Assembly: GCF_964204645.1 (NCBI RefSeq) | Contig: NC_134025.1 | Location: forward strand, 25,834,299-25,898,298 | Direction of reading: 5' to 3' | Length of the DNA stretch: 64,000 nt | Source of the DNA: Tubulanus polymorphus | Lineage: Eukaryota > Animalia > Nemertea | Part shown: piece after piece, positions 16,901 through 59,448 of the stretch | Numbering within the stretch: the first letter of the stretch is position 1 | Layout of the letters: the number at the start of each line of letters is the position of its first letter | Notes under the pieces: model-generated | Database searches by the model: none | Told to the model about the DNA's origin: nothing | What the model saw: only the letters and a program-made list of their open reading frames with translations | Position numbers and translations under genes: made by a program

Positions 16901-19900
16901 GAAATTTTTGTTCGAATTTACAACGAACAACCTACATTCCCATTGGAGGTAAGAACAAACCTTATACTGGTACTACTATATAATACAACGTAGAAGTTGT
17001 GGATTATAATAACCATACTTCATATGCCATTTAATTAAAGACTGACCTGGAAATTCCTACAGTAAGAAAACGCTCTCTTCTAACTAGATAGCTCTGGTCT
17101 GTTATTTGTTGTCGTGTTATGATTCTCGTTCTTGGGTATTGATTCCTTTTGAACTTTGTGTAGAAATGGATGATTATTCTCTTTTGTTCGGACGTTTTAT
17201 TGATGTATATAGTATATATAGTATATATGATATCGTATGAGATAATTGTTGTATATATAGTAGAAAGTCAGTATCGTACTTGATTATTTTCTAGAATGAT
17301 AGGAAATCTGAAAATCAGGTAGCGTATTATAGAGGTTTTTCTTGGTGTGGAATGATATTCTAATATTTTTCAGTATTCTTTCACATTATAATGTGCAGAT
17401 GTTTCTTCTAATCCTTCATATGAAAGGAGGATGTATTTAACCAAGTTATGGCTCCTCATAGGAAAGGTTATGCACTTGTTTTGTCATTTTAGTTGTGATG
17501 AAAGTACATAAATCACCCGTCACTTTGTTTAAGCTTTGTACACATTGGTGGATAGAACCATGGACATATAAACTAGAGTTTATATGTCCATGATAGAACT
17601 GATAACTCCTGTTATTCACTCCAGTTCAGGATTGTGTAGATTCTCTACTGTTCCTCTAATCCTGCATGTTGCAGACTATTTTTCTGTACATGTATACATG
17701 CCGGAAAATACTTTATTTCAGATACATTAACAATTAACTGCATGTTATTTACATTTCATTAACATATCGTTGAATTCATCTACCTCCATGAACTGTGATT
17801 GAGTAACCTTGTCCAACATATCATCATTTTCATTTGTAATATCTTTACATGTATTTGTAGAATGCTAAAGGTTTCACAATTGATTTACTTGACTTCCTTG
17901 GATCACAAGCACAGGTAAATTAATGCATCATAAGTCATCTGTCATTTTACTTGCCATAAACTAGGCCGTTATATCAAAGGTTAATTTGAACACGCATTTT
18001 TTTATGCTATTCCAGTATTTACATTCCCTTATGGCATTGAGTCAACAGGATTGTATCAAAGCCACACAACAATCACAGAATCAACGTCTCACTCATGTAG
18101 AAATGGCGCTGGAAGCCTTGAGAAATGTCATTAAAAACAATTCAGGTATTTGCCTACTACTATTCACTATATCATAAGATTATGTTTGGATCTTTGTATG
18201 AAAATAATGTTTTTTCTGTTTTTCAGGAGTTGAGATTCAGTGCATTGGTCATTTCAAGTTGTTGTTTTCCTTGCTGCGGCTGACTGGCTGCAATAAGATA
18301 CAGCAGTATTCCTTAGAGGTAAGCTTCAGGTTGATGAATAAGCGACTGAATTTTCAATTGATCCTCATTGTATTACTGTATCATGGTTAAATTATAGGTG
18401 CTATCTAGTGTAACTTGTAATCAGGAATGTGTGAATGATATTGCTGCATCTGAAGTGCTGGCTTATTTGCTGCTAGTTTTAGAAACTCTCCAGTCTAGTA
18501 AGTAGATGTATGATTGAAATTCTTTGCCTATTTGACACTGATTTTCAATTGCTTATTTAATTAGTGTTTTTTCCATTGCAGGTCGACAACTTGCTCTTGA
18601 AACTCTTTATCCTCTCACATCAAACACTAAAATTGTCAAAGAGGCAATGAATAAAGGTAAGAGAATATGGCATTGCATTTTACGCTGTCTCAACTCTGAT
18701 TATTCTCTTTGAAATTTATGACTTTTGCGAATATTTGCTTTCAGGTGCTCTCATCTATCTGCTTGACTTATTCTGCAATGCTACGAATCCAAACATACGG
18801 GAACAGACTGCCGAACTGTTCGCTAAAGTCCTCGCTGACAAACTCGTTGGTCCAAAGATTCGCATCCTCATGTCAAAATTCCTTCCAGGCATATTCATGG
18901 ATGCTATGCGAGATAGCCCTGAGGCTAGTGTACATATGTTTGAAGGTACAGTTTTAGCTAACATGCATATCTGTTTTGTTTTATTTGCCATCTGTATGGC
19001 AGATGAATTACGAATTGCCTTTGATTTCAGGTACTCATGAAAACCCTGAACTAATTTGGAATGAGGAAACTAGAGAGAAAGTATGCAATACTGTAAAAAC
19101 TATGAAAGATGCGTATGTATTTGATCAGTAGTTTTCATTGATCTATTATCGAATAAAATTGCAATACACATCTTTTGATTTATTGTTTGTTTCTTTTACA
19201 GGCATTTTATGAAACAGAAGGATAATCCTGAAATCCGTTGGAATTTGAAAGAGAATTTCTCGGTAATTTACTCTGACAACGAATCAGAAATGATCATAGG
19301 TGGAGTCTTCCTTCGCTTGTTCATCGCCAATCCAGGATGGGTACTACGTCGACCTAAAGAGTTTTTGTCAGAACTATTTGAAAGATGGTCTCAGCTTTGC
19401 AGTATTCCAAGCCCTAATGTAAGACATTTCCAGAGCAGTTAAATCATGAGTGTCAGAAAAATATTGGTATAGTCGCAATTGATTATCATCCATTTCTGTT
19501 TGTTTCTTTATAGGGGGAAACCTTAGAAATGGTCACGCAGGGTCTAGTCAGTTTCTTTATTGCTCAACAAACCATGTTGGATTCTGTGCCTCAACTTGGT
19601 TACATTCCACAGATATTTAAAGCCATGACCGCTCGAAACACTGCCATCCCGTACTCGGCTGTACTATTAATCAGGCAGTTGGTGGAAAACGAGGTAGATC
19701 CCAATAGTTATTATTGCTCATTATTCCTTAAAAGTTCCCTTAATTGAGTTGAACTGTGACGCTTCATTCTTCACATTTTTCTACTGTAGACATGCATTTC
19801 GAGCATGGCTTCCTCTGAATGTATCGCTCCGATGAAAACAGCCATGAAGATGCGAAAAGATGCGGTTGGAAAGGCTTGCGAAGCTTTGCACAAAATGTTT

Positions 19901-22745: not shown

Positions 22746-25700
22746 ATGGATACCCAAAGTTTAGCGATAGGTGGAGCAGTGTTTGTCATTTCTGCTGTTG
22801 TCATTTACTTAATTTCTGTTTGTGGTATGCGGGAGCGTACTTATGAGGAAGTTATGGCGGAACAACGAAGGTGGCAAGAGGCTCAAATCAAAAAACCAAC
22901 GAAAACAGACAAGAAGGACAAGGTGAAAAAGAAAATCAAGAAGAAGGAAAAGGCTGCGACTAAGGACGAGAAAGGAGAGAACAAAGAGGAAAGTGAAGAG
23001 AAAGAAGAAAAGGTGGAAAAGATCGAAGAAGCACCAGTTCTTGCTAAAGAAGAAAAGATGCTCGAAATCGAACCTGATCCAGAAATTATCGATTCCGAAG
23101 CTCCCCCGAAACAACCGAAGGGAAAGAAATCTAAGAAAACCAAATCCATCTTACATAACCGCTCGGAGCGTTCGCCGAGTACAGATGCTGTTGATGTTCC
23201 GGAAACCTTTCACCCGAAACAGATGCCGAAGGACGAGCTGGAAATCAAATACAGTCACGTATCGACCAGTGAAAGTGATTCCTCTCCAGCGATCCGTCAT
23301 AGAAAAGGCAAGAAAGGCAAGGATAAATCTGGTTCATCTAACAACAGCCAGGAGGTCAGACATGAGACAAAGGCCGAGATATTGGCCGAGGCTGAGGTTG
23401 AAGAAGTAATTCATGTTACTGAATCTACTTATGCGACTGCCGAGGCCCCTCCTCAAATGGAAGCACCAGTCAAAGAAAAAAGAAAAAACAAGAAAAATGA
23501 AGGTAGGAGATGATTTTTTCTCACTATTTAGCCTATTTGATTCAAAACACAGTTAAATTTTGGGACGACCAGTTCAAAATCTAAGCTTTATGATAAAGGG
23601 TGAAAATAGCAATTTTTTTCTGATCTCCATAGCTTGTGTAGTACTTATACAAGGCCCTCGATGAAAGAAAACAAGTTTTGACATTCTAGACCACCAATTA
23701 ATGATATCAATTCCTTTCTATTGAAAATTTGACACAATGCTCTTCCGTCTATCAATCACTTAGATCATAGTCAGTCGCTGGTCGGCCCATTTCAAGTTAT
23801 ACGACAAGATAGCGAGTTCATAGTTATTGATCATATGTCAGTAATAAATTGAATTGTATCTTTTGTCTGTCTTCGTAATCATTACTTTAAGTTATTTCTT
23901 TGTGATAAAGTTCTTGATACATCGAAAAATATATTGATATGGGTATAAGGCCTTAAGTTCAACACGTAGACTTTTTGCTTGTTGTTATATTCAGACAATT
24001 ATTGGGTGAATGTATATTTTCTTGATCTTTTAATGACTTGCACATGATCCATAGATATGTGTGGGGGCTCTATTCATTTGTTTTAGTTTGATATAGCCTA
24101 TAGGCTTAGTCTGTATGTATGTGTGAGAGCTATTCAACAGCTGGTTGGAGTCATTGACAAAAAAAGAATATATATAATAATCAATAGCCTCTGAGCGTCA
24201 TCATATGGTGTTGGTGATACCACACTCGTTCTGAGGATCAATGCCTCGAATCTAGATATAAAACACTGTCCACGGATATTTCACCTAACAGATGCTTATT
24301 TCATTTAGTCACTTCTATAAGATGTGTTTCATTCGGCCCTTCTCATTCATCTGAACTGGTGAAATATGAAATTATGCTATGGTCTGAATATTATAATATT
24401 TTACCCTTTAATGACCCTTTAATTTGCTATCACTGAGTGAAGAAAATGATTCATGGAACAACATATTTTGCGGGAAGAAATGTTTATAAAAATCCCATAT
24501 AGCGGGTATAGATGTCAAATATTTCATTTCATTATACATTTTCGTCATCAGATTATCATATCGAATGATTCCAGGTTTGAACGTTGAAGAAGCAACCGAT
24601 ACAAATGATCTTTTGAACATCATTAAAAATGCTCCTCTTACTGAAATGGAAGTACAGACTCTGATTGACATTCTTTTGGCTAAAGGAGGACGTGCAGAAT
24701 GGAATAAGGTGAGCTTGCCCACATTTTCATTCGCACATATAGAATTTATTAGCAGTGGAATCAGTAACACTTCCATATCTCTTACGTGTTGCTAAATACC
24801 CAGTAGATCATACTTTTTGTCTTTTTCACAGAAATCCCAGAAGACTGATCCAGTTTACATCTTGAAAAAACAATTGGAAGACAAAGAAAAGTCACTTCAG
24901 GAAGGTATATAACCGGCGGCTTGTTTGATGTCTGTGTTTGATAGGTATCATGTTTCAAATTTGGAAAATTGTTTTTCAGAGCAACAGTTGGCCATGTCGG
25001 CAAATTCTCGTATCAAGGAGCTGCGCCAAGAGCTATCCCAAGAGAAATCTCGATACAGCCAAATAGAGAAATCGTCGCAGGAAAAAATCGCTGACCAACA
25101 GAAAGAGATCCAGGCTTTACATTCGCGCATGCAACAAACTCATGAACAGCATCGTTTGGAAATGTCACAGGTTCGGGGCAAAATGGACGGTCAGATGATG
25201 GGCGATGGACAGGCTCAGATCATTCAAAGACTGAGCGAGGAAAATAAGCAATTGAAAGAAGCCGCTGCCAAAGCACAGTTAGTTTTTGAAAATCTTAGCT
25301 CTCAATTATAGCCTAACCATTAAAAAAACGAACAAACTAATTTTCTCATCTCTTTTGCGATGATCTCCTATAGAATGAATGCTATGCCTGCAGTAGACGT
25401 GGCCAGTTTACAACAACAACTGAAAATTGTCAACACTGAATTGTCTAACAACGTGATGAAATTGAACACTAGCGAAAACGCGAAAAGGTCAATGGAACAG
25501 AAACTGCACAGATATGAGGAACAGATTAGAAGCCTTGATAATACAAAGGTAAAACTAGTTCTAATTTCTACTTATGATGTCTTAAATCAAAATCCATATT
25601 GATGGGTGAGTATAAATTTGTATTTCTGATTCTGATTATAGAAAGATTCCGAATCTGTTTTGACCCGCAAACTGAATGAGGTAAGCGAAGAACTCCGAAA

Positions 25701-34700: not shown

Positions 34701-37700
34701 CTTTAACCCTTTATACCGCGCGGTTACACGAACACGCTTTCATGACATGCTGTCCGTTTGCCGATACTATGGATCTTTGAATTAAGTCCTTGGTCTATAT
34801 ATTAGTAGTGCTGGCAAAATATAAGATCTTATTCTAATTGGTCTTTAAGTATCTTACATATAATACAGTTCAATTGTAATGAAAGTTATGAAGAAATGAT
34901 AGCCCATTCCATAGCACTGGGCTAATTGTGATATGAAACGTTTGATGGTATTTTTTTCTGATATTACAGGAGACTTCGTCGAGCACTCGAGCTGATGACA
35001 GCAAAAAGATTCGCCATAAACTACAAAAAATATTTCCTTCAATATCAACAGATTTACAACAAGATGATGTAAGACCTCTTCGATTTGAGTTATGCTCTGC
35101 CTTTCTCAGTTTACGAGACAATATATGTCACATCGCGTTCATCTTTATTTAGGAGGACGAATGGTGGGAAGAATTTGAGACCAAAGCACAAGAACATATC
35201 AACCAATATGCTCGAAGACAAGTCAGTACTTCCACATATATATAATACTGAATATTTTTGTACAGAATTTTAACGAAACATTATTTTCTTTTTGTTCAGA
35301 GCGTACAGTTAGAACAGGAATTAACACAGTCTCAAGATGCCCAGGGTAAACTGATATCTCAAGTACAACACTATAAATCAGTACTTTCTGATACAGTAAG
35401 TATATAATGTCCATTTTCCAAAGAACGATGAATATCTGCTTAGATTTAACTGATCTTCTCATAATTTTTCAGGAGTCAATGTTGAATAAATTACAATCCA
35501 GTGTAGAATCAGAAGAGCAAAAATGGCAGAGTAAATTAACAGGCACGGAGAGTGAATTAACTAAGGTAGTTTCAAAGAATGCTTGCTCATTGAAATGCAT
35601 AACACATGTGATTTTGGAAGTGACATTTTGATTTGTTCTTTTTATTCAGACAAGGGAACAATTTGAAAAACTTACAAATGAACTTAGAAAAGCCAGGGGT
35701 GGAGGAGAAGAGGTAGGTGATCATTATGAATTCTTATAGTCCATTATTATTATGATTTTGTGATTGTTGTGATTTTGCTGTTTTTAAACAATCATGACCA
35801 TCAATTGTCGGTACAAATATTCTTTTTGTTAATCTCTATAATGGAGAATAGAAAGCTTAATGAATTTCGTTTATTTAAAGCTGTCTTACAGATATTTTAA
35901 TTCGCAATGATAGTCTGTGCATTTAGCTAGTTTGATTTTTTGCCAATTCAATTCTTAATCTCACTATTTTCTAAGAAGCTGCTTTGTTTGCCTTTGCTTT
36001 TTGCAATCATTCTGTTGATTGATTGATTCGCTCAGGATTTGAATGATTTGGATTTCGCGTATCGCTGCGTTGAAAAAAGTCTAACGCATATTGTTGATGA
36101 GGTAATGAACTCATATTCACAAATTTATGGATCACGGGAACTAAAGAATTATCGTTGTTTTCATGCTTTCACTAGAACCTGCTTCGGTTTATAAGAATTC
36201 CTGCAAATCCATTTGTAGTCCCAACTTTGTTGTATGTAGTGTCATAGTGTCTTTTCTTCGGATTACTACTTCCCATTTTCGCTTATTGTATATTTGAAAT
36301 ATGAGAATTTTTATGAAGTCTTTGTTATAATAGGCCCTATTCCAATATGGTGATACCTCCTTTATATTTCCAAACCAATATCTCATACAGCTATGAACAA
36401 TGGCATTTTAGACTTTTTGAAGACATATTTTACGTTTTTTTCACATCCTGAATATTTTATGTTTAGAGTCTTTCGCAATGCATGATTTGTTCAAACAAGT
36501 TTTGAATAATGTTAATATCTCCTCTTCAGATATTTTTTATTTTCTTGACTTTGACATAATTCGATCTTATCTTTCGTTTTTGAATTTACAGATGGAGGTG
36601 AAAGTTCAGACTCTTGAAACTGATTTGGCCACCGCTGAAAAAGAGAAAGAATCGTTACAAGTAGAATTACATGAGGTATATGGCAACAAATTAAGGATTC
36701 TAGGACAATTGCCCCCCCCCCCCCCCGAATAAAATCCCTTTTGACTTGGATTAACACCACCTAAATACTTTACTTAGAAATTCATTTGTATATCATTGAA
36801 TATAGATTTATAAGATATAGAATTACTGATTTTGTGTGCAGATCAAAAACCTTAAATCAGTCCTTGTGTAATTTTTATTCACTTACCAAATTAAAGGAAA
36901 CTTAGTAAGTTCACTTATTAGTGCATTAGTTAACGTTGGCTAATTTATTGGAATTAGTTTTAGTGTTACTTCTGCCAATCAAAAATTTTAAAGCAGTCCT
37001 AGAGTAAATAGCTAGAATTAGTTCACTTTGTCTAATTAATTTGAAGTAAATATCTGTGTTACTTTAAGATTAAAAAGATTTAATTTGGGGGGCAATTGTG
37101 CGGGGGGCAGTTGTCCGGGGGGCAATTGTCCTGATACCCAAATTAAGTGATTGAAATTCATGAACTGTCAGAATTTCGTTCTAATAGCATTGAATTCAAC
37201 TTCGTCTTTTTAGTCGCAAGAAATTTTATCCTCCGTCAAGTTGGAATTAGAAAAATTAAAAGAAAGTCTTGCTAGTCAAGAAATTACGAAGAAGGTAAGC
37301 GCTGAAGTTTAGCCATATATTTGGAAGGTTTACTATATAATATACTTGTATACGTATGATGTTGCGGTGCTTTGTGATAGAATGTCCGACAAATGTGCTT
37401 GTGGAGTGGGTTGCAATTATAAAGGTTACGTTGTTATTAGTTGTAGGGTGTTATGTTCCTGTCTTGACATCTATAAATAATCCTTGTTTTTTTTTAAACG
37501 AGTATTAATTCGCCCACAGATTATATTTAGATCACGTTCTTATTTCATATTCTGTGAAATACTAAATTCAGATCGGTATATTTGATATACTCTCTTAGTT
37601 ACAACTAACTCAGTCTTGCTCTCTTATCTGTTCATACATTATCATGTCATATCTGCCTTTCAGCGGGACACAATACGGGCAGAAAGGGTAAGGGTGGATG

Positions 37701-48600: not shown

Positions 48601-51113
48601 TGGAGTACTTTATCATATACGATTATCTTACCTTCAATATGCTGCATAGTTCTGATAAAGTCTCGAGGTGATTTATATGAATAATTAGAGGACGAAACAC
48701 ATCATATAACAGTGTACACAATCGTTGTAACATATGACTGCAAACAGATAATAGGAAAGATTATTCATGGTTTGATGCATAATGGACCGAAACGCTGGTT
48801 TTATGTAGTTGTCAATCTGCTGTCTGTACCCAATCCTTCAGACGATCCCCATTTGAATGACAAAGTCTAGATGAACATATTTTTAACAAATGATGAATGT
48901 CTGTCTAAAATTCATAGTTAAGACATGACACCCTTATTCATTTTCAAAGAAAAATGTCTGGGGTACTACCACAGGGGGCGATGCCTGGACGAACATGTTT
49001 TGGTAAAATGGTGAATGTCTGTCGAACGCCTGAGGGAGGTGTGTACAGACAGCAGGTTGATAGCTGCATTAATATCGATGTTAACTCACTCTAGCTGCAT
49101 GGTATGTTCCGTGAAAAACTGATTATAAAGTTGATATTCGTCTTCACAAACGTGCACCAAAAATGCGCAGCCACTTCGCATCTGACAAGATAAAAGAATA
49201 GAAAATAACCTGTGTATCTTTGCTGAACAATTCCACAGGGTTTTTGGAAATTCTAAGAAGACTCTACACACCAGTGCGCAGTGATCTCTATTGTGTTTAG
49301 TAGCTAATTCAGCGACGGCTTGAGAAATGCTCGGACCGAGTAATGTTTCACGCTGAGAAAAATAACACTGGTGACAATCTGATAATAGCTGTTCATACCT
49401 GAAATAAGCGCCCAATGAAATAAGTAACGAGGGAGGGGCAGCAGATATTTTATGAGGGATGTCTGCCTTTCAGGTGGCAGTAAAAATGAAAGGAGTGATT
49501 GTGGAGAACTATAGAACTACTTACTCTGAGCTGACACCTCTACGTTGTTCCATTTGTTCCATCAGGGCTTTTACCCGAGGAGCGTTTGTCCGAAATTTAC
49601 CGTAAAATAATGTGAATGCGTTATCATCCGTACCAGTTATATCCTAGAAATCCGAGATTAAATCAGTTGTCAGGACTGTTAAATTCAAGATTGTACCTAC
49701 ATCCTCAGATTGAGCCATCGAGGATTGAATTTACCTTCCGTGGCATCGCGTTTAGAGTGGCATTTTGAAGGATGTTGACGACGTGAGTCTTAATGAGCGT
49801 TAATGCTTTCGACAGTGACTGCTTGAAACGTGCCAAATATACCGGAGATTCTTTATAACGAGGCTGAAAGTAAGAATCACACAAAAGATCGGTTCCAAAT
49901 ATATCTCATTTCTGGTGTTGTAGTCGTTTACATTGATGGTTACAATGACTTACATTTTTGTTTAGGTAAGCTATGCATTCGTCAATCCTGGATAGAGTCG
50001 GTACAAATGAATCACTTGTCACAGTCAGCGTAGGTGCACCCAGTCTCTGTGAAAAATACAGCATTTTTTGGTAATTTATTTCTTATTAAATGCCGTGAAA
50101 AATGATGGAAAGTACCGAGAAGATATCTTACACTGGTAATCTTGTCCAATTCATTAAAATATGACAACTTGTTTTGGATGGTCTCAGCTTGGTTGACTAG
50201 TTTCGTCTGAAACAGAGAATTAAAGGTTTAGACTCGGTACGCAAAATGCTATGAAAAGTATTTCTAACATTTTACCTGTTCATCCAATAAGTGTTCACAA
50301 GCTTCGTGGAGCGCATTCGTTTTCGTTGAAACGTGTACGTATTGATTCATCAGTTCTTGCAGATGATCTAATGCAGTGGTAACTTCATTCAGTATCTGAT
50401 CGCACTGCTCTCCGTAATCAGCTAACTGGTCCAAATAAAAACTACAAGAAAAAGGAAAGAGACAAATTAAAATACTTGTTGTTCATAGAGGACAAGCTGT
50501 TGGTCAAATATATATGATCCTACCCGTATTGCAAATCATCTTCAGTTTTCACCTTGTCCTCAATTTTCGAATACCAGAGGAAAAACTGTTGGGCATTCTC
50601 TATCGTTTGTTCTTCGATTTCTAAAGCAGCGAATCCCTTTGCTATGATATCGTCCTCCGACCCTGTCGTACCACTGGTGGTACTGGAATGTAGATTCGGC
50701 ACACCAGGAAATTCATCAAGAGGCAACTGAAATTACAATATGCTGAGTTCAAGTACGATATGGATGATTGATTTCCATAGAAAATTAGTTAGAAAGCATA
50801 AAGCACTAATAAAGATTCACTTTCCAGGACCCAGACCTATGCCACAGTACAGAACGTACATTACAGATTGTGATGACATTTGACAGCCAGCAAACCCGGA
50901 AGTAAAAATATTAATATGTTAACAGTTTTCGACTATTAAATGCCCTCATTATGTTACCTCAATTGGTAATTGTTTATTTCCAACGTGACCAGTTAGCTCC
51001 AAGATTCCGTGTCTCTGTCGTTCAGTCAACGGAGCTTTAGGGGACGATTTGGCTTCCCAGGCGGAGAGTTTTTCTCTCAAAACCTTGTTCGAAATTGTAA
51101 ACGTGTCAGCCAT
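45602..51113 (-). CDS. COG3: Conserved oligomeric Golgi complex subunit 3 (Sec34), multi-exon
   Basis: MADTFTIS...[110 protein letters not shown] at 45604-45602. Confidence 0.96.
46664..46819. mobile_element. Degenerate Tc1/pogo-type MITE in a COG3 intron
   Basis: The right end reads TA-CAGTAAACCTCACCTAGCTCGGACA on the minus strand; a degenerate inverted copy ...tctcaacttactcggaca lies at the left end. Confidence 0.45.
48805..49067. mobile_element. ~260 bp MITE-like inverted-repeat element in a COG3 intron
   Basis: Perfect 13-bp core ctgctgtctgtac (48817-48829) / gtacagacagcag (49043-49055), extending imperfectly to ~40 bp. Internal direct repeat ctagatgaacat / ctggacgaacat. Confidence 0.6.
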
Positions 51114-52149
51114 TTTTGTTTGGGCCCGGTTCCTACTCGGTTGCCGGTGCATACTTCGATTCGCTTGCGGCTAATTGTCTTTCATCGCAAATATCGTCCT
51201 TTAGAAAAAAACCTATTAAATTTGTATCACTTGCCGAAATAGGATGCCAACTTAAGAAAATTTTATCCTTCGATGTATTGCTTTGTAAATAGCAAATTAC
51301 GGGATTCGAAACTGAACATCACAAACTTTGCGCCAATCATCGCTCAGAACGGACTGACGCACCATTGGCGCGAAAATGCGAATGCAAAGTTCTCACCGAC
51401 TGGATTTATGTTTCATAGTGTATACTTAAAAATCTTTTTTAAATCAAAATTATAAAAAAGCGAATGCACAAGTTGAATCACTTACCATCATGCAGATTCC
51501 CGATTAGCGTGCTCTTGACCATTCTCTTTGTTGACGTCAGTTTTACAGTATCATTTCTTTTTACAGAGTATTTTCCCTATTACAACTCTTTGTTGACATC
51601 CATCAATTTTAAAGTATTATATCTTTTTACGAAGTGAAGTCTGTCTAAACATTGACTGGTTTCGTGAATCTAGATAGTACAGTTTTCCATGTGCGTGGGA
51701 AGTATCATCTTGGGCCGTACCAAACGCGTCGACTAATTATAGGCTGAGGAATTTGGAATTTAGAAAAAAAGGGAATGGGTTGGGTTTCAAAAAAGCGTAT
51801 ATCCCGTATATCGGAGGGACAAATAAAATTACGTACAGTCATAATTTTGATAATAAACGTAAATATGGATGGAATTTCCGGGAAAACGATATTTGGAGGT
51901 TGAGACCCATGAAGTTTCGAAGGTTCGGGGTATTTGGAGGTCGGTGAGTCTATCTGGTAGACCAGGTAGCGTGCGGGAACGAGTTACCGAACTGAGGATC
52001 GAATGCATCTCGGATTATCTGGAGACACTAGTAACTTGTAAAGGATCTTGTGGTCAGGGAGGTCGGGCTATTAGTAGATCGGCTATGTGGAGGATTGTGG
52101 TATCAGGGTATTGGAGGAGGGAGGATGGTGGTGATATTTGGTGGCAGAT

Positions 52150-52765
52150 TTGGGTACCAGTACTAGTAGTCCTACTGGTATTGCCATTAGGCAGTCATCG
52201 CAGTCTAAGACGGCATATATTCCTGACACTGCAAGGCTGTCCCGCCTTCCCAACTCTCAATGTGCACAAAATACGACGCGCATTAGTAGGAGGGAAGGAG
52301 TTTGGGCTTGGACTGAGGTTTATTACCGCAGTCCTATTGTTTTCCACTGTGCGGTGAGGATAACAGTACCCAGGGCCTCTCTTTAAGCCCCGGGTACGGC
52401 CTACCCATTGAATGGGCAAGTTCAAGGGTTTTTCAAGAAATTTATGCGTGAGCCTCAGCCCTCGCATCTTTGAAAAATCCTATATGAAAGCTTATCCCCC
52501 CACCAGAAATAAATGGGGGGAGAGGGGCAGTTCCCAGTGTTTCTCAAAGCTTGCAATGCTTTGATGACAAACCTGGGAACCGCCTCGTTCGCTTAAGTTC
52601 CCAGGGTTTTTATAATGATAAATGCATGAGCCACGGCCCGCATCTGAAAAACCCTGGGAACTTCTTGCCTCATTCAATGTGTAGGCTAAAATTGCAGTGT
52701 CAGAATTTTGCCGTCGATCTTGAGACAATCGAGCCGATTTGGTACTACCGGTAGGGTACCAGTTG
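52150..52765 (-). ncRNA. Putative structured RNA domain (nested multi-branch fold), family unrecognised; strand tentative
   Basis: Nested stems 52209-52234/52692-52715 and 52399-52420/52664-52686 enclose seven hairpins, including a perfect 17-bp stem 52595-52611/52647-52663. Confidence 0.6.
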
Positions 52766-53859
52766 ATAGATTCCCGTATAGAAGTATTAGTAAAGATGGG
52801 ATTGGGAGGGTATATAGAAAGAAAGTTCATTTCAAGAAATCGTTTGAAGATGGGAAGTTTGGGATTGATAAAGTGCTTGAGGTTAATGCGGGGATGGGGA
52901 GGGGCTGACTACAAACAGGAATCAACTGTCCGATATAGGTTTCTAAATGGAAACACACGCCTCCGTGCATTAGGAATGGCCAGATAGCTACCAGCAGTGG
53001 GTTTTATATGGATGATGATGTACGAATCCCGGATTTGGGATAAATAGATTGGGGTAATCTTGGACGGAAGAGGATTGTTGGGATCTAGAACGAAAACCAT
53101 GGATATGAAACAATAGATTGCAAGGCAAGGCTGACATACAACCAGACACTACGTAGCCTATGTTGATAAATGAACATCAGTGAGCCAAAGTTTCATTTCA
53201 GTTTGATTGGAAAGTTAGATAGGAGAATTTCTGACACAAGTTGATTATTTATTGTGATAGGTGGAAGATTGGGAAGTTTCAATGTGTATTATTTTGAATA
53301 CGGGAATTTTGTTGCAAGTTTAATTATGGCCGTCAAGCAGCCATTGGTAAAGTTTCAAAATGGCTCATGGATGATGACAAAAATGACTACCAGTTAGTTT
53401 TTACATGAACCTGATTAAGATTAGTCAAAAAGAAAAACAATCATTTAAAGATTGCGCAAGAAGCATTTGATAAAGCAGGAGCGGTGTGGCGGGTGTAAGA
53501 AAAAAAACCGGAAATTTTGGAAAGAGATGGGGCGTAATCTGATCAGGTATCAATGTACAAATAACGTGGCTGAAAAACATCCATTGGTTGCTTTTGAAAT
53601 TGCCACTATTCGTGTATGATGACAAGAAGGCTACCTGTAAGCTGTGATTTTAATTATTTGCAAATTATTTCGGAGAATGATTTGAAAGTGACCACGCGTT
53701 TGGCAGGCGATCTGTACAGATATGTAAATACATCAGGATAACTGCACCAAATTTACATAATTATTTGCAATATTTTACATTATTCGTGAAATCCACTGCA
53801 CCATAAATAATGCATGAGATCACCCGAAAATCTAAGTATTTGCGTTCATGCCCATGCTT

Positions 53860-54985
53860 GTGATCCATACTTAACCCTTGAATGAGTGTTCCCACTCTGT
53901 CTCGGAGAGCAACACAAAAACTGGCCATTAGATATAAGTATTGACTTTACCATCGATGTATGGATCACCTGATACTTTTCTACAAGTCGATCGTTTAGAT
54001 TTTCGAGGACACATACGTAAGTTTGTACGAAATTTCATTATTATCGGTTTAGACAGACCAGGGAGGTCTCTCGCACCTCCCAACATACATTGCGTACTGT
54101 ACATCATTTGTGATGATGGATGCCGAAACAAGTTAACAAACATTGGTCACGCTCCTGATAGAGTGTGATAGGGTACCCTAGTACTTTGATTACTTTCATG
54201 AACAACTTATTCCGAATACATGATCTTAAGCTTTGCGAACTTTGCAAAATTAGGAAAACATTTTGTTGCGTATCATTATTGAACTCGTGGATACGTGAGT
54301 TCGAGAAAATTTGAGACAGTTTCCTCCTGATACATGATCGTTGCGTCACATATAGCACTTTAGTTAGTTTTTCAAGGCGACGACTTTTTCCACTTCGGAA
54401 CATAGGAAAATGGTCTCCAAATGGTGGAGCATCATAATCCCTGAGTCATGTATGATACGCGAGACTATCGCGGGTAGATATGTAATAAACCGGCCCGTGG
54501 TTTGAAAAATTACCCCTTTTACATTACGTACTCACATATCATATAATACTTCTTTTCGTAGGATCTTTACATAATTATAGTTAGATCTCAATGTGACATC
54601 AAATATGTTTGTTCATTTGCATGAAATATCGTGTGGCCATCTCAGTATTTCTGTCGTCTGAGATTTTACACAAATGTATAAACGTTACATAATTGTTTTC
54701 ATTTTGAACACCTCGTTCATAAGACATTAAAATAACGATACCCGGCTGATGGTACCAAGCTTTGCTCTAAGAAAAGGCAATCATCTAATGAATGAATGAA
54801 GATACTATTCTGTAATCATAGATGTTTCGTGCCTTATTGTAATTTTGAGACATTTGAGTCGGTGATCCAAACTTATGGGAAACGATTTTAGGACGGTTTC
54901 TCTCATTTAGACATAAGTAATACAACCTAAACTGGCCCTAGTTTTTGATGTAATATTTATCATGCACATGGAGTTTGGATCACGG
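53860..54985. ncRNA. Putative structured RNA region with two homologous GTGATCC stems and many short hairpins
   Basis: Perfect stems 53860-53870/53958-53968 and 54862-54873/54972-54983; hairpins at 54061-54081, 54147-54168 and 54281-54302. Confidence 0.4.
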
Positions 54986-55229
54986 AGTGGTTGTTGATAT
55001 AACACAAAAATATTAACAAAGATACTAACATAGGTAAAACTATAGCTTATAGGTAGAGATGCAGTGTAAAAAGCTATTTATGATATAAACACAAGTAAAA
55101 CTAGGTGATGCAGTGTAAAAGGGTGCATCAGAGAAATAGTTTAATTTTTGGAAATATTTGAATTTTAGAGATTTTTTTGTTTGAATTTTTACAGTTTTAA
55201 AATGTTTTTGGTATTTAAAAAAAATTACT

Positions 55230-56853
55230 TAAGTCCGCACTGTACACATGGGGTATGATATATAATGCAGAGCTGCCATTACTCTGCATATCATACGAAA
55301 CAATTAACTTTCAAATTCACAGTTAAAATAGTAGTACCAGTATCAAGTAGTTTCAATAGTTACAACAGATTAATAAAGATAACACAATGAGAAGAAGTTC
55401 GGCGTAATGAGATATGATATGGGGGTATACTGGTACCGGCAATGAATGACGATTAAAATCAGAAGATAAGTTGAATTTTAAAGAAGAAAATATATGTACA
55501 GTGCGTCTTAGTAGAAATACCACTTGTGGCTTGGCAAATTTTTGTACCTTACCCATCAATAACTGGTATCAAAATATCAAGAATCTAAGAAATAAGCTGT
55601 AAATCTGAAACGATCAGTAAAAAGTGTAATGAAATGTTCATTTCGGTTGGATGGGTAAGGACAGGTTGACGATCTTGCTGGCGATTTGGCGATGGAGTGA
55701 CGGTTATTGTTTGATTTTGAATTTTGAATTTTTCGCAGAATTGAAGCGAATCGAAATATAATTTTTCGGTGAATGGCTTCTGGGGCGAAAGATGAAGCCA
55801 AAATATTTGATGTTAGAAATAGGTTCAAGACGAACAGGGAAGGAATTGGTAGAATTTGTGAGAATTCTTGATTTTGCGCACAGCAGGAAATTCCACCCAC
55901 TTTCTAGAACCAGTCAGTTCAATTGCTCGTTCACTGGATGTTGATAGAAGGTTGAATCGTGACTGGGCAGTAAAGCGATCCATAGACCAAAATCTGATTT
56001 GGTTTGCAGATTTGGCTACGTCGGGAATTTCCATTGTGCTAAGGCCAAACACACATGACGATTTTTGCAAGCCGAGTCATGTGCCCCACTCAATCGCCAC
56101 CGAGCCTCCAGTCATACGATGTAGTGAGTAGATCAGGCGATTTTTCGAGCCCACTCACCGGAATGCTGCACTCCCGCGCAGATTACATAGTGCAATTCCC
56201 ACGGTGACCCCGCTCGACAATGTATCAGTTTCGGTGCCAATGATTGGCTACCACGAATCCATATTTGGCAGATCTAATTGATGCAGTGGACATACCAGAC
56301 GATATTGATCGAGCGATTGATTGGTCGTCCAAGTCCAAGATGTTCGAAATCAAACAGGCGATTTTTTAGTCACCCGATCAACATAGGTACAGGTGTGCCC
56401 AATTCATTGATGAGATTCGCCCAATTAAGACTCTCAAGATGATAGCCGTTCCTTGGGCCGAAATTTGCACATGAACGACCTGATAAACGGGAAATTGTAT
56501 TATGTAGTCAGTGCAGTAGTACAACCACCCGTGAATAAGTTTGAAAAGCCGTCTGATCTGCTCACTCCATCGTGCAAAGTAAGGACCGGTGCTGATTGAG
56601 TCGGACACATGAATCGTCAGGATAAGTCGTCAAGTGAACCCGGGAAGAATTCTGAAATATCCAAAAACATTACATCCTTCGCGTACCAGAAGCCATAGCA
56701 CATTGCACTGAACTTCGGCCGAAAAGATGTGAGATATTAAAGTTGAATCGGAAAGTATCAGTTCAGTGCTTTTTATAGACATATTATAGCTAGCTATAAT
56801 ATGACTATGTTAGACCTACATAAAGTAGGCCTGTGAACCGTCAATCCATCGCC
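55230..56853 (-). ncRNA. Long branched fold-back directly downstream of the orphan ORF (structured 3' UTR / hairpin RNA)
   Basis: Basal stem 55688-55705/56836-56853 (17/18); 55773-55783/56686-56696 (11 bp perfect); ~280-bp imperfect rod ~56060-56330/56357-56635; side branches; further stems 55236-55246/55495-55505 and 55547-55557/55650-55660. Confidence 0.65.
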
Positions 56854-56866
56854 GCGCGGAGCAGAT

Positions 56867-57565
56867 TCATGATAAAATATCTACGCTGTTGGAAGAGAAA
56901 CAACATCCGAACATCTTCTTGAAGAATTTCTTGATTTTCTTGAATCTGCTGGTTCTCCTCCTCGGCTCCTCAATTACAAATGCATTCACTGGAGTGATTT
57001 TGTATTCGGGTCCGTAGTCGTAGTCGTAGAATCGCTCAAATTCGTCATCATTTTCGGCGATCATTTCGGAGGCCGTGATCTCGAAAGCTAATTGTCTTCG
57101 CTCGAATTGTCGTCTTCTCATCATCGTGACGGTTGGGGTCAGAGGTCTGCAGATTCGGCGAACAACTGGCGCATACATGGCAATTTCGTCTGGCTGGCCG
57201 AGAGATTCCGTCGAAGAGGAGATATCAATGACGCTGCAAATATCGCTTATGTTGCTTCCGAAACTCTTCAAACTAGCAGCTTCTACCACGTAGGTTTTGT
57301 CAGAATGGAAGCTGTGCTCGTCATCTGCATTGTAGTCTTCATCGCCGACATCAGCGAAATCAGCGACATCAGCATCACCAGCATCGGAAGGAGTAACCGG
57401 GCTAGGCTCTGCCTCAATGCTTTTCCATACAACTTGGTCGGGCGAGAATACTCTACTTGTCGTCCATGTTTTCCCCTTGTCGTCGCGGATAACTCTAACC
57501 ACACCATCATCGCCAATATCATAGCCGATTTCGGCTTCTTTTACCAAAACGCGAGTAACAGGCAT
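56867..57565 (-). CDS. Orphan 232-aa protein (intronless CDS), acidic/low-complexity middle, basic amphipathic C-terminal helix with Cys-Cys
   Basis: 699-nt open frame, GC-richer than its flanks, with a TATA/Inr and a splice acceptor upstream. C-terminus RRRTSRFKKIKKFFKKMFGCCFSS. No family recognised. Confidence 0.65.
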   Translation of the reverse strand: MPVTRVLVKEAEIGYDIGDDGVVRVIRDDKGKTWTTSRVFSPDQVVWKSIEAEPSPVTPSDAGDADVADFADVGDEDYNADDEHSFHSDKTYVVEAASLKSFGSNISDICSVIDISSSTESLGQPDEIAMYAPVVRRICRPLTPTVTMMRRRQFERRQLAFEITASEMIAENDDEFERFYDYDYGPEYKITPVNAFVIEEPRRRTSRFKKIKKFFKKMFGCCFSSNSVDILS

Positions 57566-57730: not shown

Positions 57731-58744
57731 AACTGACACCCTAATATGGTAGGCTAGGCATTAAATGAAACAATGACGGGGCGAATTAATTTTCAACTGC
57801 CAAGAGAAAAAATATTTCGTAAGTTATCTTTAAAAAAAAAATGTGGGAAAACAATTCCTTCCGGCGACGGCATCCGTTCCTCTGTCATTAGTTTGATGCT
57901 CATCTCAAAAATCTTCCGTCTCAATGTTCAATAATCAATATTTAAGATGAAGATCACTGAAGATCTCATACCCAGTGAAAAATATAATATATTTTATGCT
58001 GACACCCCAATCAGGATGCCTAAATAATTGCAGCACCGACGTAAGGGGTACATATTCAATTCTGAAAACCGGATAGCTTAAACTCGAGACCCTTGAAATA
58101 ACTCATAATTAAATAGAAATAAGAGTTGGCAGGTTTATTATTCATTTCTAATTGTTTTTACTTAAAAATAATTAAGTTTACAAGTACATGTATCATCTAG
58201 TAGATATTATATGTCGTTTATGTTAATATTGATGAAAAAAAGCTAAGTAATAAATATCCCATTCAAAACAGTTCAATTCCACCGTATGTTATCTATCTCA
58301 TCAACTCAGGAATTGGATTCGTATCAAAAGACAAAATATGTATTTAGGAATTTTCGCCTAGACCTGCATCTGATGAGGGCCCCTAATCCATAAACACATT
58401 CTGAAAACACTTGAAAAAAGTTTCTCCAGCTTATAGTTACATAAATCAAAAGACAATTCGGAATGTATGATGTTTGTATCTTTGATGTTGAAAGTGGACT
58501 TGGCGTCCCCCGAATCACTTGCACGTATTAAAGCTTTGTTAAAAGTTATACACAATTTGGTTAGAAGACTGAGACAGGCATGATACTGCCACGAAAACAC
58601 CACTAAAATCGCTCACATAATCCACCACAAACACGTAACTAAGTTACAAAAAGCTTGCGAGATGATTTCTCGATGAAATTTTGAATCAATTTAAACACGA
58701 TTTACAACTTAAAAACTTAATGATCTTCATTTCCACATACTTAC

Positions 58745-58950
58745 ATTTGCTAATGCGTCTTGTTTTATTCGTATTAAGTACTATTTTCTTTAATTTTCTG
58801 CTATAAGTCACCTAACAACGGCACTTTAGTCGAGCTGCAACTTTGACTAACTTCACTGAAGCGAGTCTTTATAGTTACTATGGATGCTGAAACTACGCGC
58901 ATGCCCGCCCGTCGTCACGCTATGACGTCACTAGGGGCTCCAGCCGCGGA
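58745..58950 (-). promoter_or_regulatory. CpG-rich distal promoter and candidate non-coding first exon for the orphan gene
   Basis: CRE TGACGTCA at 58923-58930, NRF1-like gcgcatgccc at ~58897, GC box. An ATG-free stretch ends at the donor |gtaagt (58744); an acceptor tttctag| directly precedes ATG 57565. Confidence 0.45.
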
Positions 58951-59448
58951 GGCGAAATTTACCGATTGCATGTATGGCGTGTTGATACCCTGGCTAACGT
59001 TTTGATAATATAGGATAATTCTGGACTTGTCTGCATTTTGAAAGTATTCAAAATCACTGCGTCTAAACAAATAAAATGCCTTAAACATATATTTCGCTAA
59101 CAAATTTAAGACACGACTGAAAACCAGAAAATCATATTGCTTGGAATATGATTTCTTCACAATTCTTATTTATGATACATATTTAAGCATGAATATCCAT
59201 CGACCCGAATCGATGAATTAAAGTGGTACAGATACTCGGTTTTAGTTCACTTCGACTGGCATTTTTCTATCAAATTTTTCATTTATTTTGATTCCCGTTG
59301 ATATCACGCGCGTTATCAACGGGGATCGCTCAAAAGTTATACCTGTGAGCATCACATTTTCAACGTTTTTTGGGGGGAGGGCTCCAGAACACTGTTCAGT
59401 TCCAAATAAAAATCTAACCCTCCCGCCACTTTCCTCCTCACACTACGG

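Follow-up and report, generated by a model that had tools for sequence, protein, structure and literature searches.

We analysed a 64,000-nt stretch of contig NC_134025.1 of the palaeonemertean Tubulanus polymorphus (hereafter the window), in which a structured element lies approximately 1 kb upstream of the start of COG3 and 4.1 kb downstream of the stop codon of an orphan open reading frame (ORF). COG3 is on the minus strand (ATG at 51113) and carries the Pfam domain COG3_C, AHSA1 is also near the element, and an RRBP1-like exon (window 22746-23510) is 100% identical to a T. polymorphus RefSeq protein. A CpG-rich patch at 51330-51372 (o/e 1.56) with two inverted CCAAT boxes is a promoter candidate for COG3 and, judged by these motifs, is likely a bidirectional one. 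The orphan ORF (57565-56867, minus strand, 232 codons) was absent from the protein collection, homology searches returned no homolog, and its codon score was modest (0.087, compared with 0.15-0.17 in COG3 exons). Its 232-aa product would be acidic, with a C-terminal basic amphipathic stretch containing Cys-Cys. Upstream signals include a TATA box at 58873, a splice donor at 58744, and an acceptor-like TTTCTAG immediately 5' of the ATG, and the promoter region (58840-58960) combines TATA, CRE-like, and GC-box motifs. Four ORFs that overlap or adjoin the element (162, 112, 87, and 92 aa) showed no coding signal, and two of them, as well as a 63-codon part of the 87-aa frame, had no match in the protein collection. 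The 162-codon frame (51869-52357, plus strand) enters the element and contains a hydrophobic stretch, and we take it as a chance occurrence.

Folding predictions for the element indicated a large and highly ordered structure. The region from 52150 to 52765 had predicted folding energies of -270.5 kcal/mol on the plus strand and -273.1 kcal/mol on the minus strand. The corresponding z scores were -8.6 and -10.9, and none of 20 shuffles folded as well on either strand. Relative to the window's GC regression (103 tiles of 616 nt), the element fell 6.0 standard deviations below expectation. The structured domain (52152-52763), which we describe on the minus strand as the inferred strand, is predicted to adopt a two-tier multibranch fold with 10 hairpin loops in the minimum free energy (MFE) structure. 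Pairs were considered confirmed when the partition function gave a pair probability greater than 0.5 on both strands, and both long-range stems and six of the seven hairpins named in a preliminary description of this DNA reached that level. That description also held that nearly every base lies in a stem, which was an overstatement, as 64-66% of bases were paired at p >0.5. Its suggestion of an evolved structure fared better. The 17 core helices comprise 165 positions, of which 150 form Watson-Crick pairs and the remaining 15 divide into 8 minus-strand G-U pairs, 3 plus-strand ones, and 4 others; in addition, double compensatory swaps distinguish the paralogous stems. On the basis of these models, we regard the predicted fold as real. 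We note that the two strands give nearly the same fold, which DNA parameters also reproduce.

Two long-range stems organize the domain. The outer closing stem (52209-52234/52692-52715) consists of 7 bp and a further 11-14 bp at p >0.5 on both strands (7 bp and 14 bp with one G-U on the minus strand), and the inner stem (52399-52420/52664-52686) consists of 6, 9, and 6 bp at p of at least 0.9. The four inner hairpins were recovered: h1 (52425-52481), h2 (52495-52521), h3 (52526-52584), and h4 (52595-52663). The second of these, h2, is a C-rich/G-rich hairpin with two minus-strand G-U pairs. The outer tier differed from the preliminary account, which gave it three hairpins. Two of these, at 52245-52298 (hA) and 52366-52397 (hC), were supported by the partition function, while the third, at 52325-52355, was approximately 10 kcal/mol (plus strand) and 12 kcal/mol (minus strand) above the MFE. 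In the ensemble its place is taken by a hairpin at 52310-52334 and another at 52338-52365, which brings the outer tier to four; an AAUAAA at 52324-52319 (minus strand) lies mostly in the loop of the former. Two flanking hairpins had also been proposed. They form locally only under DNA parameters; as RNA they instead pair together across the element, and the one checked pair of that stem was lost in a longer transcript context. An alternative fold in which h3 and h4 swap strands was rejected, as it was 14 kcal/mol worse.

Four of the hairpins share a repeated stem. The reported paralogy of h1 and h4 was upheld, with 27 of 37 nt identical in an ungapped comparison and a score of 36 between their 5' halves (p 0.001, 1000 shuffles), compared with a maximum of 30 among 212 tiles elsewhere in the window. 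The minus-strand G-U pair below both tetraloops (52451/52460 and 52629/52638) and the GTTCCCAG/CTGGGAAC pairing common to h3 and h4 were also present as described. The full apical module is shared by h1 and h4, but the stem repeat is fourfold rather than twofold. Taking h4 as copy 1 (52593-52665), with a stem of 17 perfect bp and an apical GGGC-CGUG-GCUC, the others are h3 (copy 2, 52524-52586, stem only, p 0.001 versus h4, with a 6-nt palindrome UUGCAA in the loop), h1 (copy 3, 52418-52488, stem and apical GGGC-UGAG-GCUC), and hC (copy 4, 52364-52399, stem only, p 0.001, with compensatory swaps relative to h4), all on the minus strand; h2 is not a module copy. The 5' arms of the four copies have AGT(T/A)CCCAG(G/T)G in common, and five of their six pairwise comparisons gave p <=0.008 (1000 shuffles). 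Only one other of all 28 hairpin comparisons was below 0.05 (p 0.021). Since only 5' halves were compared, hairpin symmetry was not counted twice.

The copies differ in ways that largely preserve pairing. In a hand-set register, double swaps occurred at stem positions 1 (AU/CG), 5 (UA/AU), 13 (UA/CG), and, in h1, 7 (CG/AU), and there were four one-sided changes among copies (G-U on the minus strand in three and on the plus strand in one). In a MAFFT alignment of the four copies, 4 of 17 pairs were changed on both sides, which was seen in 1 of 500 shuffles; three of these double changes agreed with the hand register and one reflected a misregistration of h1, and a control slid by -1 also gave four double changes. 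The comparison comprises only four copies. From the sequences of the copies, we interpret this as evidence that pairing was maintained while the copies diverged, which does not in itself prove maintenance as RNA. Compensatory swaps in hairpins can also come from template switching at the DNA level.

The minus strand is weakly favored for a putative RNA, based on wobble pairs, G-poor flanks, and a set of promoter-like motifs. The wobble bias (8 G-U pairs on the minus strand versus 3 on the plus strand) was not significant (one-sided p 0.11). Both the upstream flank (52766-53600) and the downstream flank (51650-52150) are C-rich, G-poor, and unstructured on the minus strand, where they average 28% C and 13% G, and the five 500-nt windows of highest GC skew in the 64 kb are the element's flanks. 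A candidate Pol II promoter at 52977-53052 has CCAAT at 53052 (-75), TATAAAA at 53008 (-31), and an Inr A at 52977 (+1). This combination, in canonical spacing and 210 nt upstream of the element, appeared in 20 of 2000 flank shuffles, with the motif set defined post hoc. The same set occurs at three sites in the 128 kb of both strands, and one of the other two is located at a coding exon's end. When a 1492-nt candidate transcript (52977-51486) was folded, 13 of 14 checked pairs were kept, and pairing was 47% in the flanks versus 69% in the domain. Minus-strand AATAAA signals occur only in the upstream flank (53253) and in a loop of the element (52324), with none in the downstream flank. On the plus strand, AATAAA signals at 51822 and 51852 separate the element from the COG3 promoter, which argues against a divergent plus-strand transcript reaching it.

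DNA sequencing data suggest that the element is single copy at 85% identity and that its h1 tip is variable. In DNA run X1, one 11.3-kb contig spans the element with flat depth (34.5-36.5), which suggests that there is no further copy at 85% identity, with the caveat that a filter drops some records. This contig differs from the window by a G>C change at 52166 and by the absence of 18 nt at 52449-52466, corresponding to the tip of h1. In prediction, the deletion raises the folding energy to -262.8 kcal/mol from -273.1 kcal/mol, with the lower stem and the remaining fold surviving. The deletion argues against an indispensable h1 tip and is compatible with either redundancy with h4 or no function. 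Two further runs (X2 and X3) barely cover the element and contain no splice joints, and their loose ends resemble what we take to be a proximity-ligation bridge; we treated both as DNA on these grounds.

A 10-nt direct repeat, GGGTACCAGT, which the preliminary description had missed, brackets the element (left copy 52152-52161, right copy 52754-52763) and could represent a target duplication of 9-10 bp. Inside the 9-bp reading of this repeat, the ends of the element match in register at 10 of 13 positions as an imperfect inverted repeat. The 8-nt core of the repeat, GTACCAGT, occurs 10 times in the window, including at 55334 and 55436, and an unoccupied target site was not seen. These last copies, within 55330-55440, are in inverted orientation approximately 100 nt apart.

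Searches for relatives identified none. The preliminary description saw no likeness to RNase P/MRP, SRP, or snRNA, and Rfam 15 families at the gathering threshold, including those three as well as 7SK, U3, group I/II introns, IRES, ribozymes, and miRNA, gave no match in the 64 kb. At E values up to 10, Rfam produced three sub-threshold matches in 50500-54500 (best E 1.8), and the sole relaxed match within the element was mir-9223 (17.7 versus 53 bits). Across 51500-56870, no Pfam family was found at E up to 1 in any of the 12 translated frames, nor was any transposase, reverse transcriptase (RT), or viral domain. The phage and plasmid collections contained no match to the element. Viral contigs contained no locus with the module pattern and three with the stem pattern, which were chance matches; in metagenomes, none of 32 module-pattern loci extended past the pattern or reached a BLAST E <=0.01. 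A covariance model search, as the preliminary description had proposed, recovered within the window the model's own four copies and a perfect palindrome at 1607-1665, and no fifth copy. Applied to 35 pattern loci, the same model gave four weak matches, the best of which (25.1 bits) was at a locus itself selected by pattern (L014). Because these collections contain nearly no animal DNA, the blank result says little about conservation in nemerteans. A near-perfect palindrome of approximately 115 nt at 1576-1690, whose 150-nt tile has a z of -14, is probably a young inverted-repeat element.

Several known RNA classes were considered and rejected. Metazoan telomerase RNA falls in a similar size class, and PMC8480181 gives 408 nt for apple snail telomerase RNA and long stems without canonical CR4/5 in protostome telomerase RNAs. 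According to the same paper, the template is unpaired and spans 1.5-2 telomere repeats, with a length of 8 nt in the apple snail. The template is absent from our element: the longest match to a CCCTAA permutation in 51500-53700 was 6 nt, as against at least 8 nt, assuming this telomere repeat for nemerteans, and the sole TAACCCT, at 53872, is outside the element. Telomerase RNAs also have a P2b/P3 pseudoknot and a 3' box H/ACA domain; among different unpaired segments of the element, no pair of loops was complementary over 5 bp or more. A retrozyme or viroid-like RNA was rejected because the CTGANGA hammerhead core is absent from the element and no Rfam ribozyme matched. A circular form was rejected because a 602-nt circle of the repeat-bounded unit folded no better (-262.2/-261.6 kcal/mol) than the linear form (-263.7/-266.0 kcal/mol), and a Pol III RNA because T5 runs occur inside the domain (52429 and 52607 on the plus strand, 52651 and 52477 on the minus strand). 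SECIS, K-turn, ENE, and Smaug elements were rejected by eye against their consensus.

A second strongly folding stretch of approximately 600 nt (56050-56640; z -9.4 and -10.9), hereafter the rod, begins approximately 230 nt past the orphan ORF stop. It is a single imperfect hairpin whose arms are approximately 68% identical (182 of 259 aligned positions), with mostly transitions between them. The rod has one loop compared with 10 in the element and a G-U share of 13% compared with 6%, and its G-U pairs show no strand bias (19 plus, 24 minus). It is single copy at 85% identity in run X1, and an Rfam search of it gave no match. The rod looks like an old inverted duplication, or alternatively a long dsRNA (an editing or endo-siRNA substrate) within a 3' UTR.

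The explanation to which we tentatively incline, at somewhat less than even confidence, is an independent lncRNA, made by Pol II from the minus strand, with the element as its core and a predicted role as a multivalent protein scaffold. Transcription would start at 52977 and proceed towards lower coordinates, downstream of the first poly(A) signal of the upstream gene (53253). The domain may have grown by tandem duplication of a hairpin unit of approximately 55-67 nt, followed by selection for pairing. The G-poor flanks would remain single-stranded and allow the domain to fold independently, while the two long-range stems would cluster the modules for multivalent binding. The twin GGGC-N4-GCUC tips could be recognized specifically, and the long stems could be bound as dsRNA in the manner of Staufen targets; the predicted partner is a single kind of hairpin- or dsRNA-binding protein, present in several copies, which would form an RNP with the RNA. 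The UUGCAA loop of h3 is the only loop (self-)complementarity of at least 5 bp, and no complements of that length exist between different unpaired segments of the element. Dimerization via this loop is speculative, because with about eight loops we estimate an approximately 20% chance of such a palindrome anyway. A role in transport or granule assembly is equally a matter of speculation.

Other origins would not involve a present RNA function. One possibility is that a non-autonomous mobile element, either of a foldback or MITE-like kind or a retroposed structured RNA, inserted here with a target duplication of 9-10 bp and left a relic. The structure would then have been selected during the life cycle of the mobile element and would have no host function now. 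We consider this unlikely, although more probable than the other rivals: GGGTACCAG(T) exactly brackets the element, the inner ends form the 10/13 inverted repeat, the near strand symmetry and folding with DNA parameters would be expected under it, an allele with the h1 tip deleted exists, and other inverted-repeat elements (1576-1690 and the rod) are present in the window. However, perfect repeats and near-perfect helices suggest youth, and no second copy was found at 85% identity in X1; the recurrence of GTACCAGT means that the bracketing repeat may be a recurring local motif. The mobile-element reading is further weakened by the lack of transposase, RT, and viral domains in the 12 frames of 51500-56870, by the lack of an A-tail at either end, and by a branched, 10-loop interior that contrasts with the single decayed rod nearby. 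A purely DNA-level accident, in which local tandem and inverted duplications and template-switch hairpin repair produced the structure with no meaningful transcription and at most a DNA role, receives little credence from us. The spacing of the four copies (55, 109, and 67 nt) resembles a decayed tandem array, the loss of a hairpin tip in X1 is compatible with slippage at hairpin-prone sequence, and the pairs are mostly strand-symmetric. Yet nested stems 270-500 nt apart that are nearly free of mismatches, together with 10 loops, are unlike decay; the decayed inverted duplication nearby is only approximately 68% identical between arms, with transitions dominating. Such an accident would also leave the G-poor flanks and the promoter set unexplained.

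Two further readings place the element within the transcript of a neighboring gene. It may be a distal, bicoid-like cis signal that acts together with the rod in a 5-kb 3' UTR of the orphan gene, which we find rather improbable. The element is on the strand of the orphan gene, which has a TATA box, a donor, and the acceptor-like TTTCTAG before its ATG, and similar C-rich, G-poor tracts lie at 54900-55900 and around the element. The minus-strand gap from 58139 to 53253 is the longest AATAAA-free gap of the window on either strand and would fit either an extended final exon of the orphan gene that ends just before the candidate promoter or read-through. The AATAAA at 53253, however, lies approximately 490 nt before the domain, so that only a read-through isoform would include it, and AATAAA depletion over 56866-51500 was not significant (2 observed versus 3.95 expected, p 0.25). 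The ORF has no homolog and a modest codon score, and the rod lacks strand bias. There is precedent for such a signal in the structured, dimerizing bicoid and oskar elements, as described in PMC7357161 and PMC5785220. Alternatively, COG3 could have a second type of transcript whose structured 5' leader, 1.5 kb long, contains the element and exerts IRES-like or repressive translation control; an exon from 52977 to 51486 would then be spliced to exon 1 of COG3. Both the candidate promoter and a donor with perfect consensus, G|GTAAGT (51480-51486, minus strand), are on the COG3 strand, and by eye the ATG at 51113 is preceded by a run of pyrimidines that ends in AAG (51200-51199). That acceptor is not YAG and was missed by the splice scan, the leader would contain 23 ATGs, and COG3 has its own CpG-rich promoter (51330-51372); of all the readings, we regard this leader as the least probable. 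Taken jointly, the readings that involve RNA function (lncRNA, orphan 3' UTR, and COG3 leader) are probable.

We consider the element, as modeled, to be real, unusually ordered, and unclassified, with internal signs of structural conservation. It is conceivable, though we lean against it, that it represents an undescribed class of large ordered animal ncRNA: an independent ribbon-worm lncRNA in which tandem amplification of a single hairpin built a four-module nested tree, with compensatory change preserving its pairing, that would form a multivalent and possibly self-dimerizing RNP. Under such a new class, the element, the rod, and the orphan gene would constitute one lineage-specific RNA-regulatory locus.

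Parts of the architecture recall known systems. The roX1/roX2 RNAs and the Xist A-repeat carry tandem related hairpins in non-coding Pol II RNA that provide multivalent, partly redundant protein sites. Their repeated related hairpins resemble the modules of the element, but the latter are enclosed by two nested long-range stems and match no Rfam family. Retroviral RRE, RcRE, and CTE elements have a long closing stem and a multibranch head with duplicated sites. The element has a comparable closing stem and head with duplicated sites but, unlike these, is single copy, without a retroelement coding remnant in 51500-56870 or an Rfam match. MULE and foldback-type MITEs generate target duplications of 9-11 bp; the element has a direct repeat of 9-10 bp on its flanks and, at its ends, a short and imperfect inverted repeat, which may correspond to the features of these transposons. 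In contrast to these transposons, the element is single copy at 85% identity, has a branched interior, and has terminal inverted repeats of only approximately 13-25 nt.

Among mRNA signals, a likeness exists with the bicoid and oskar 3' UTR localization elements, which are substrates of Staufen, Egalitarian, and Exuperantia. Like these, the element is predicted to be multi-domain, its long helices being recognized by their shape and its 6-nt loop being capable of a kissing contact. A 6-nt palindromic loop in oskar and a 6-bp loop-bulge contact in bicoid are described in PMC7357161 and PMC5785220. The palindromic loop of the element (UUGCAA) is AU-rich, whereas that of oskar is GC-rich. Unlike bicoid and oskar, the element is built from four paralogous stems and its membership in an mRNA is uncertain.

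Few animal lncRNAs have a compact 600-nt fold that is well determined, and none from nemerteans was among the literature matches listed; no title among those matches concerned this locus or a structured nemertean lncRNA. If expressed and conserved, the element would offer a tractable example of how duplicated hairpins make up a structured RNA, with an internal record of compensatory change and a naturally occurring deletion allele with which module redundancy can be probed. RNA localization in spiralian embryos might likewise be approached through it; centrosomal mRNA localization has been reported in Ilyanassa and Spisula (PMC8595238). If it is a transposon relic, it would mark an element family with an unusual branched interior.

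Smaller repeats and hairpins occur elsewhere in the window. Two diverged AT-rich repeats with 66-nt spacing (51537-51635) lie just downstream, in the minus sense, of the C-rich tail, and further C-rich, G-poor tracts are those at 54900-55900 mentioned above. Many other contigs align partly to short stretches of COG3 introns at 49000-49072 and 49434-49473, and these stretches are small dispersed repeats. The 150-nt tiles at 17551-17700, 37051-37200, and 56701-56850 contain further local hairpins, with z from -5 to -7.
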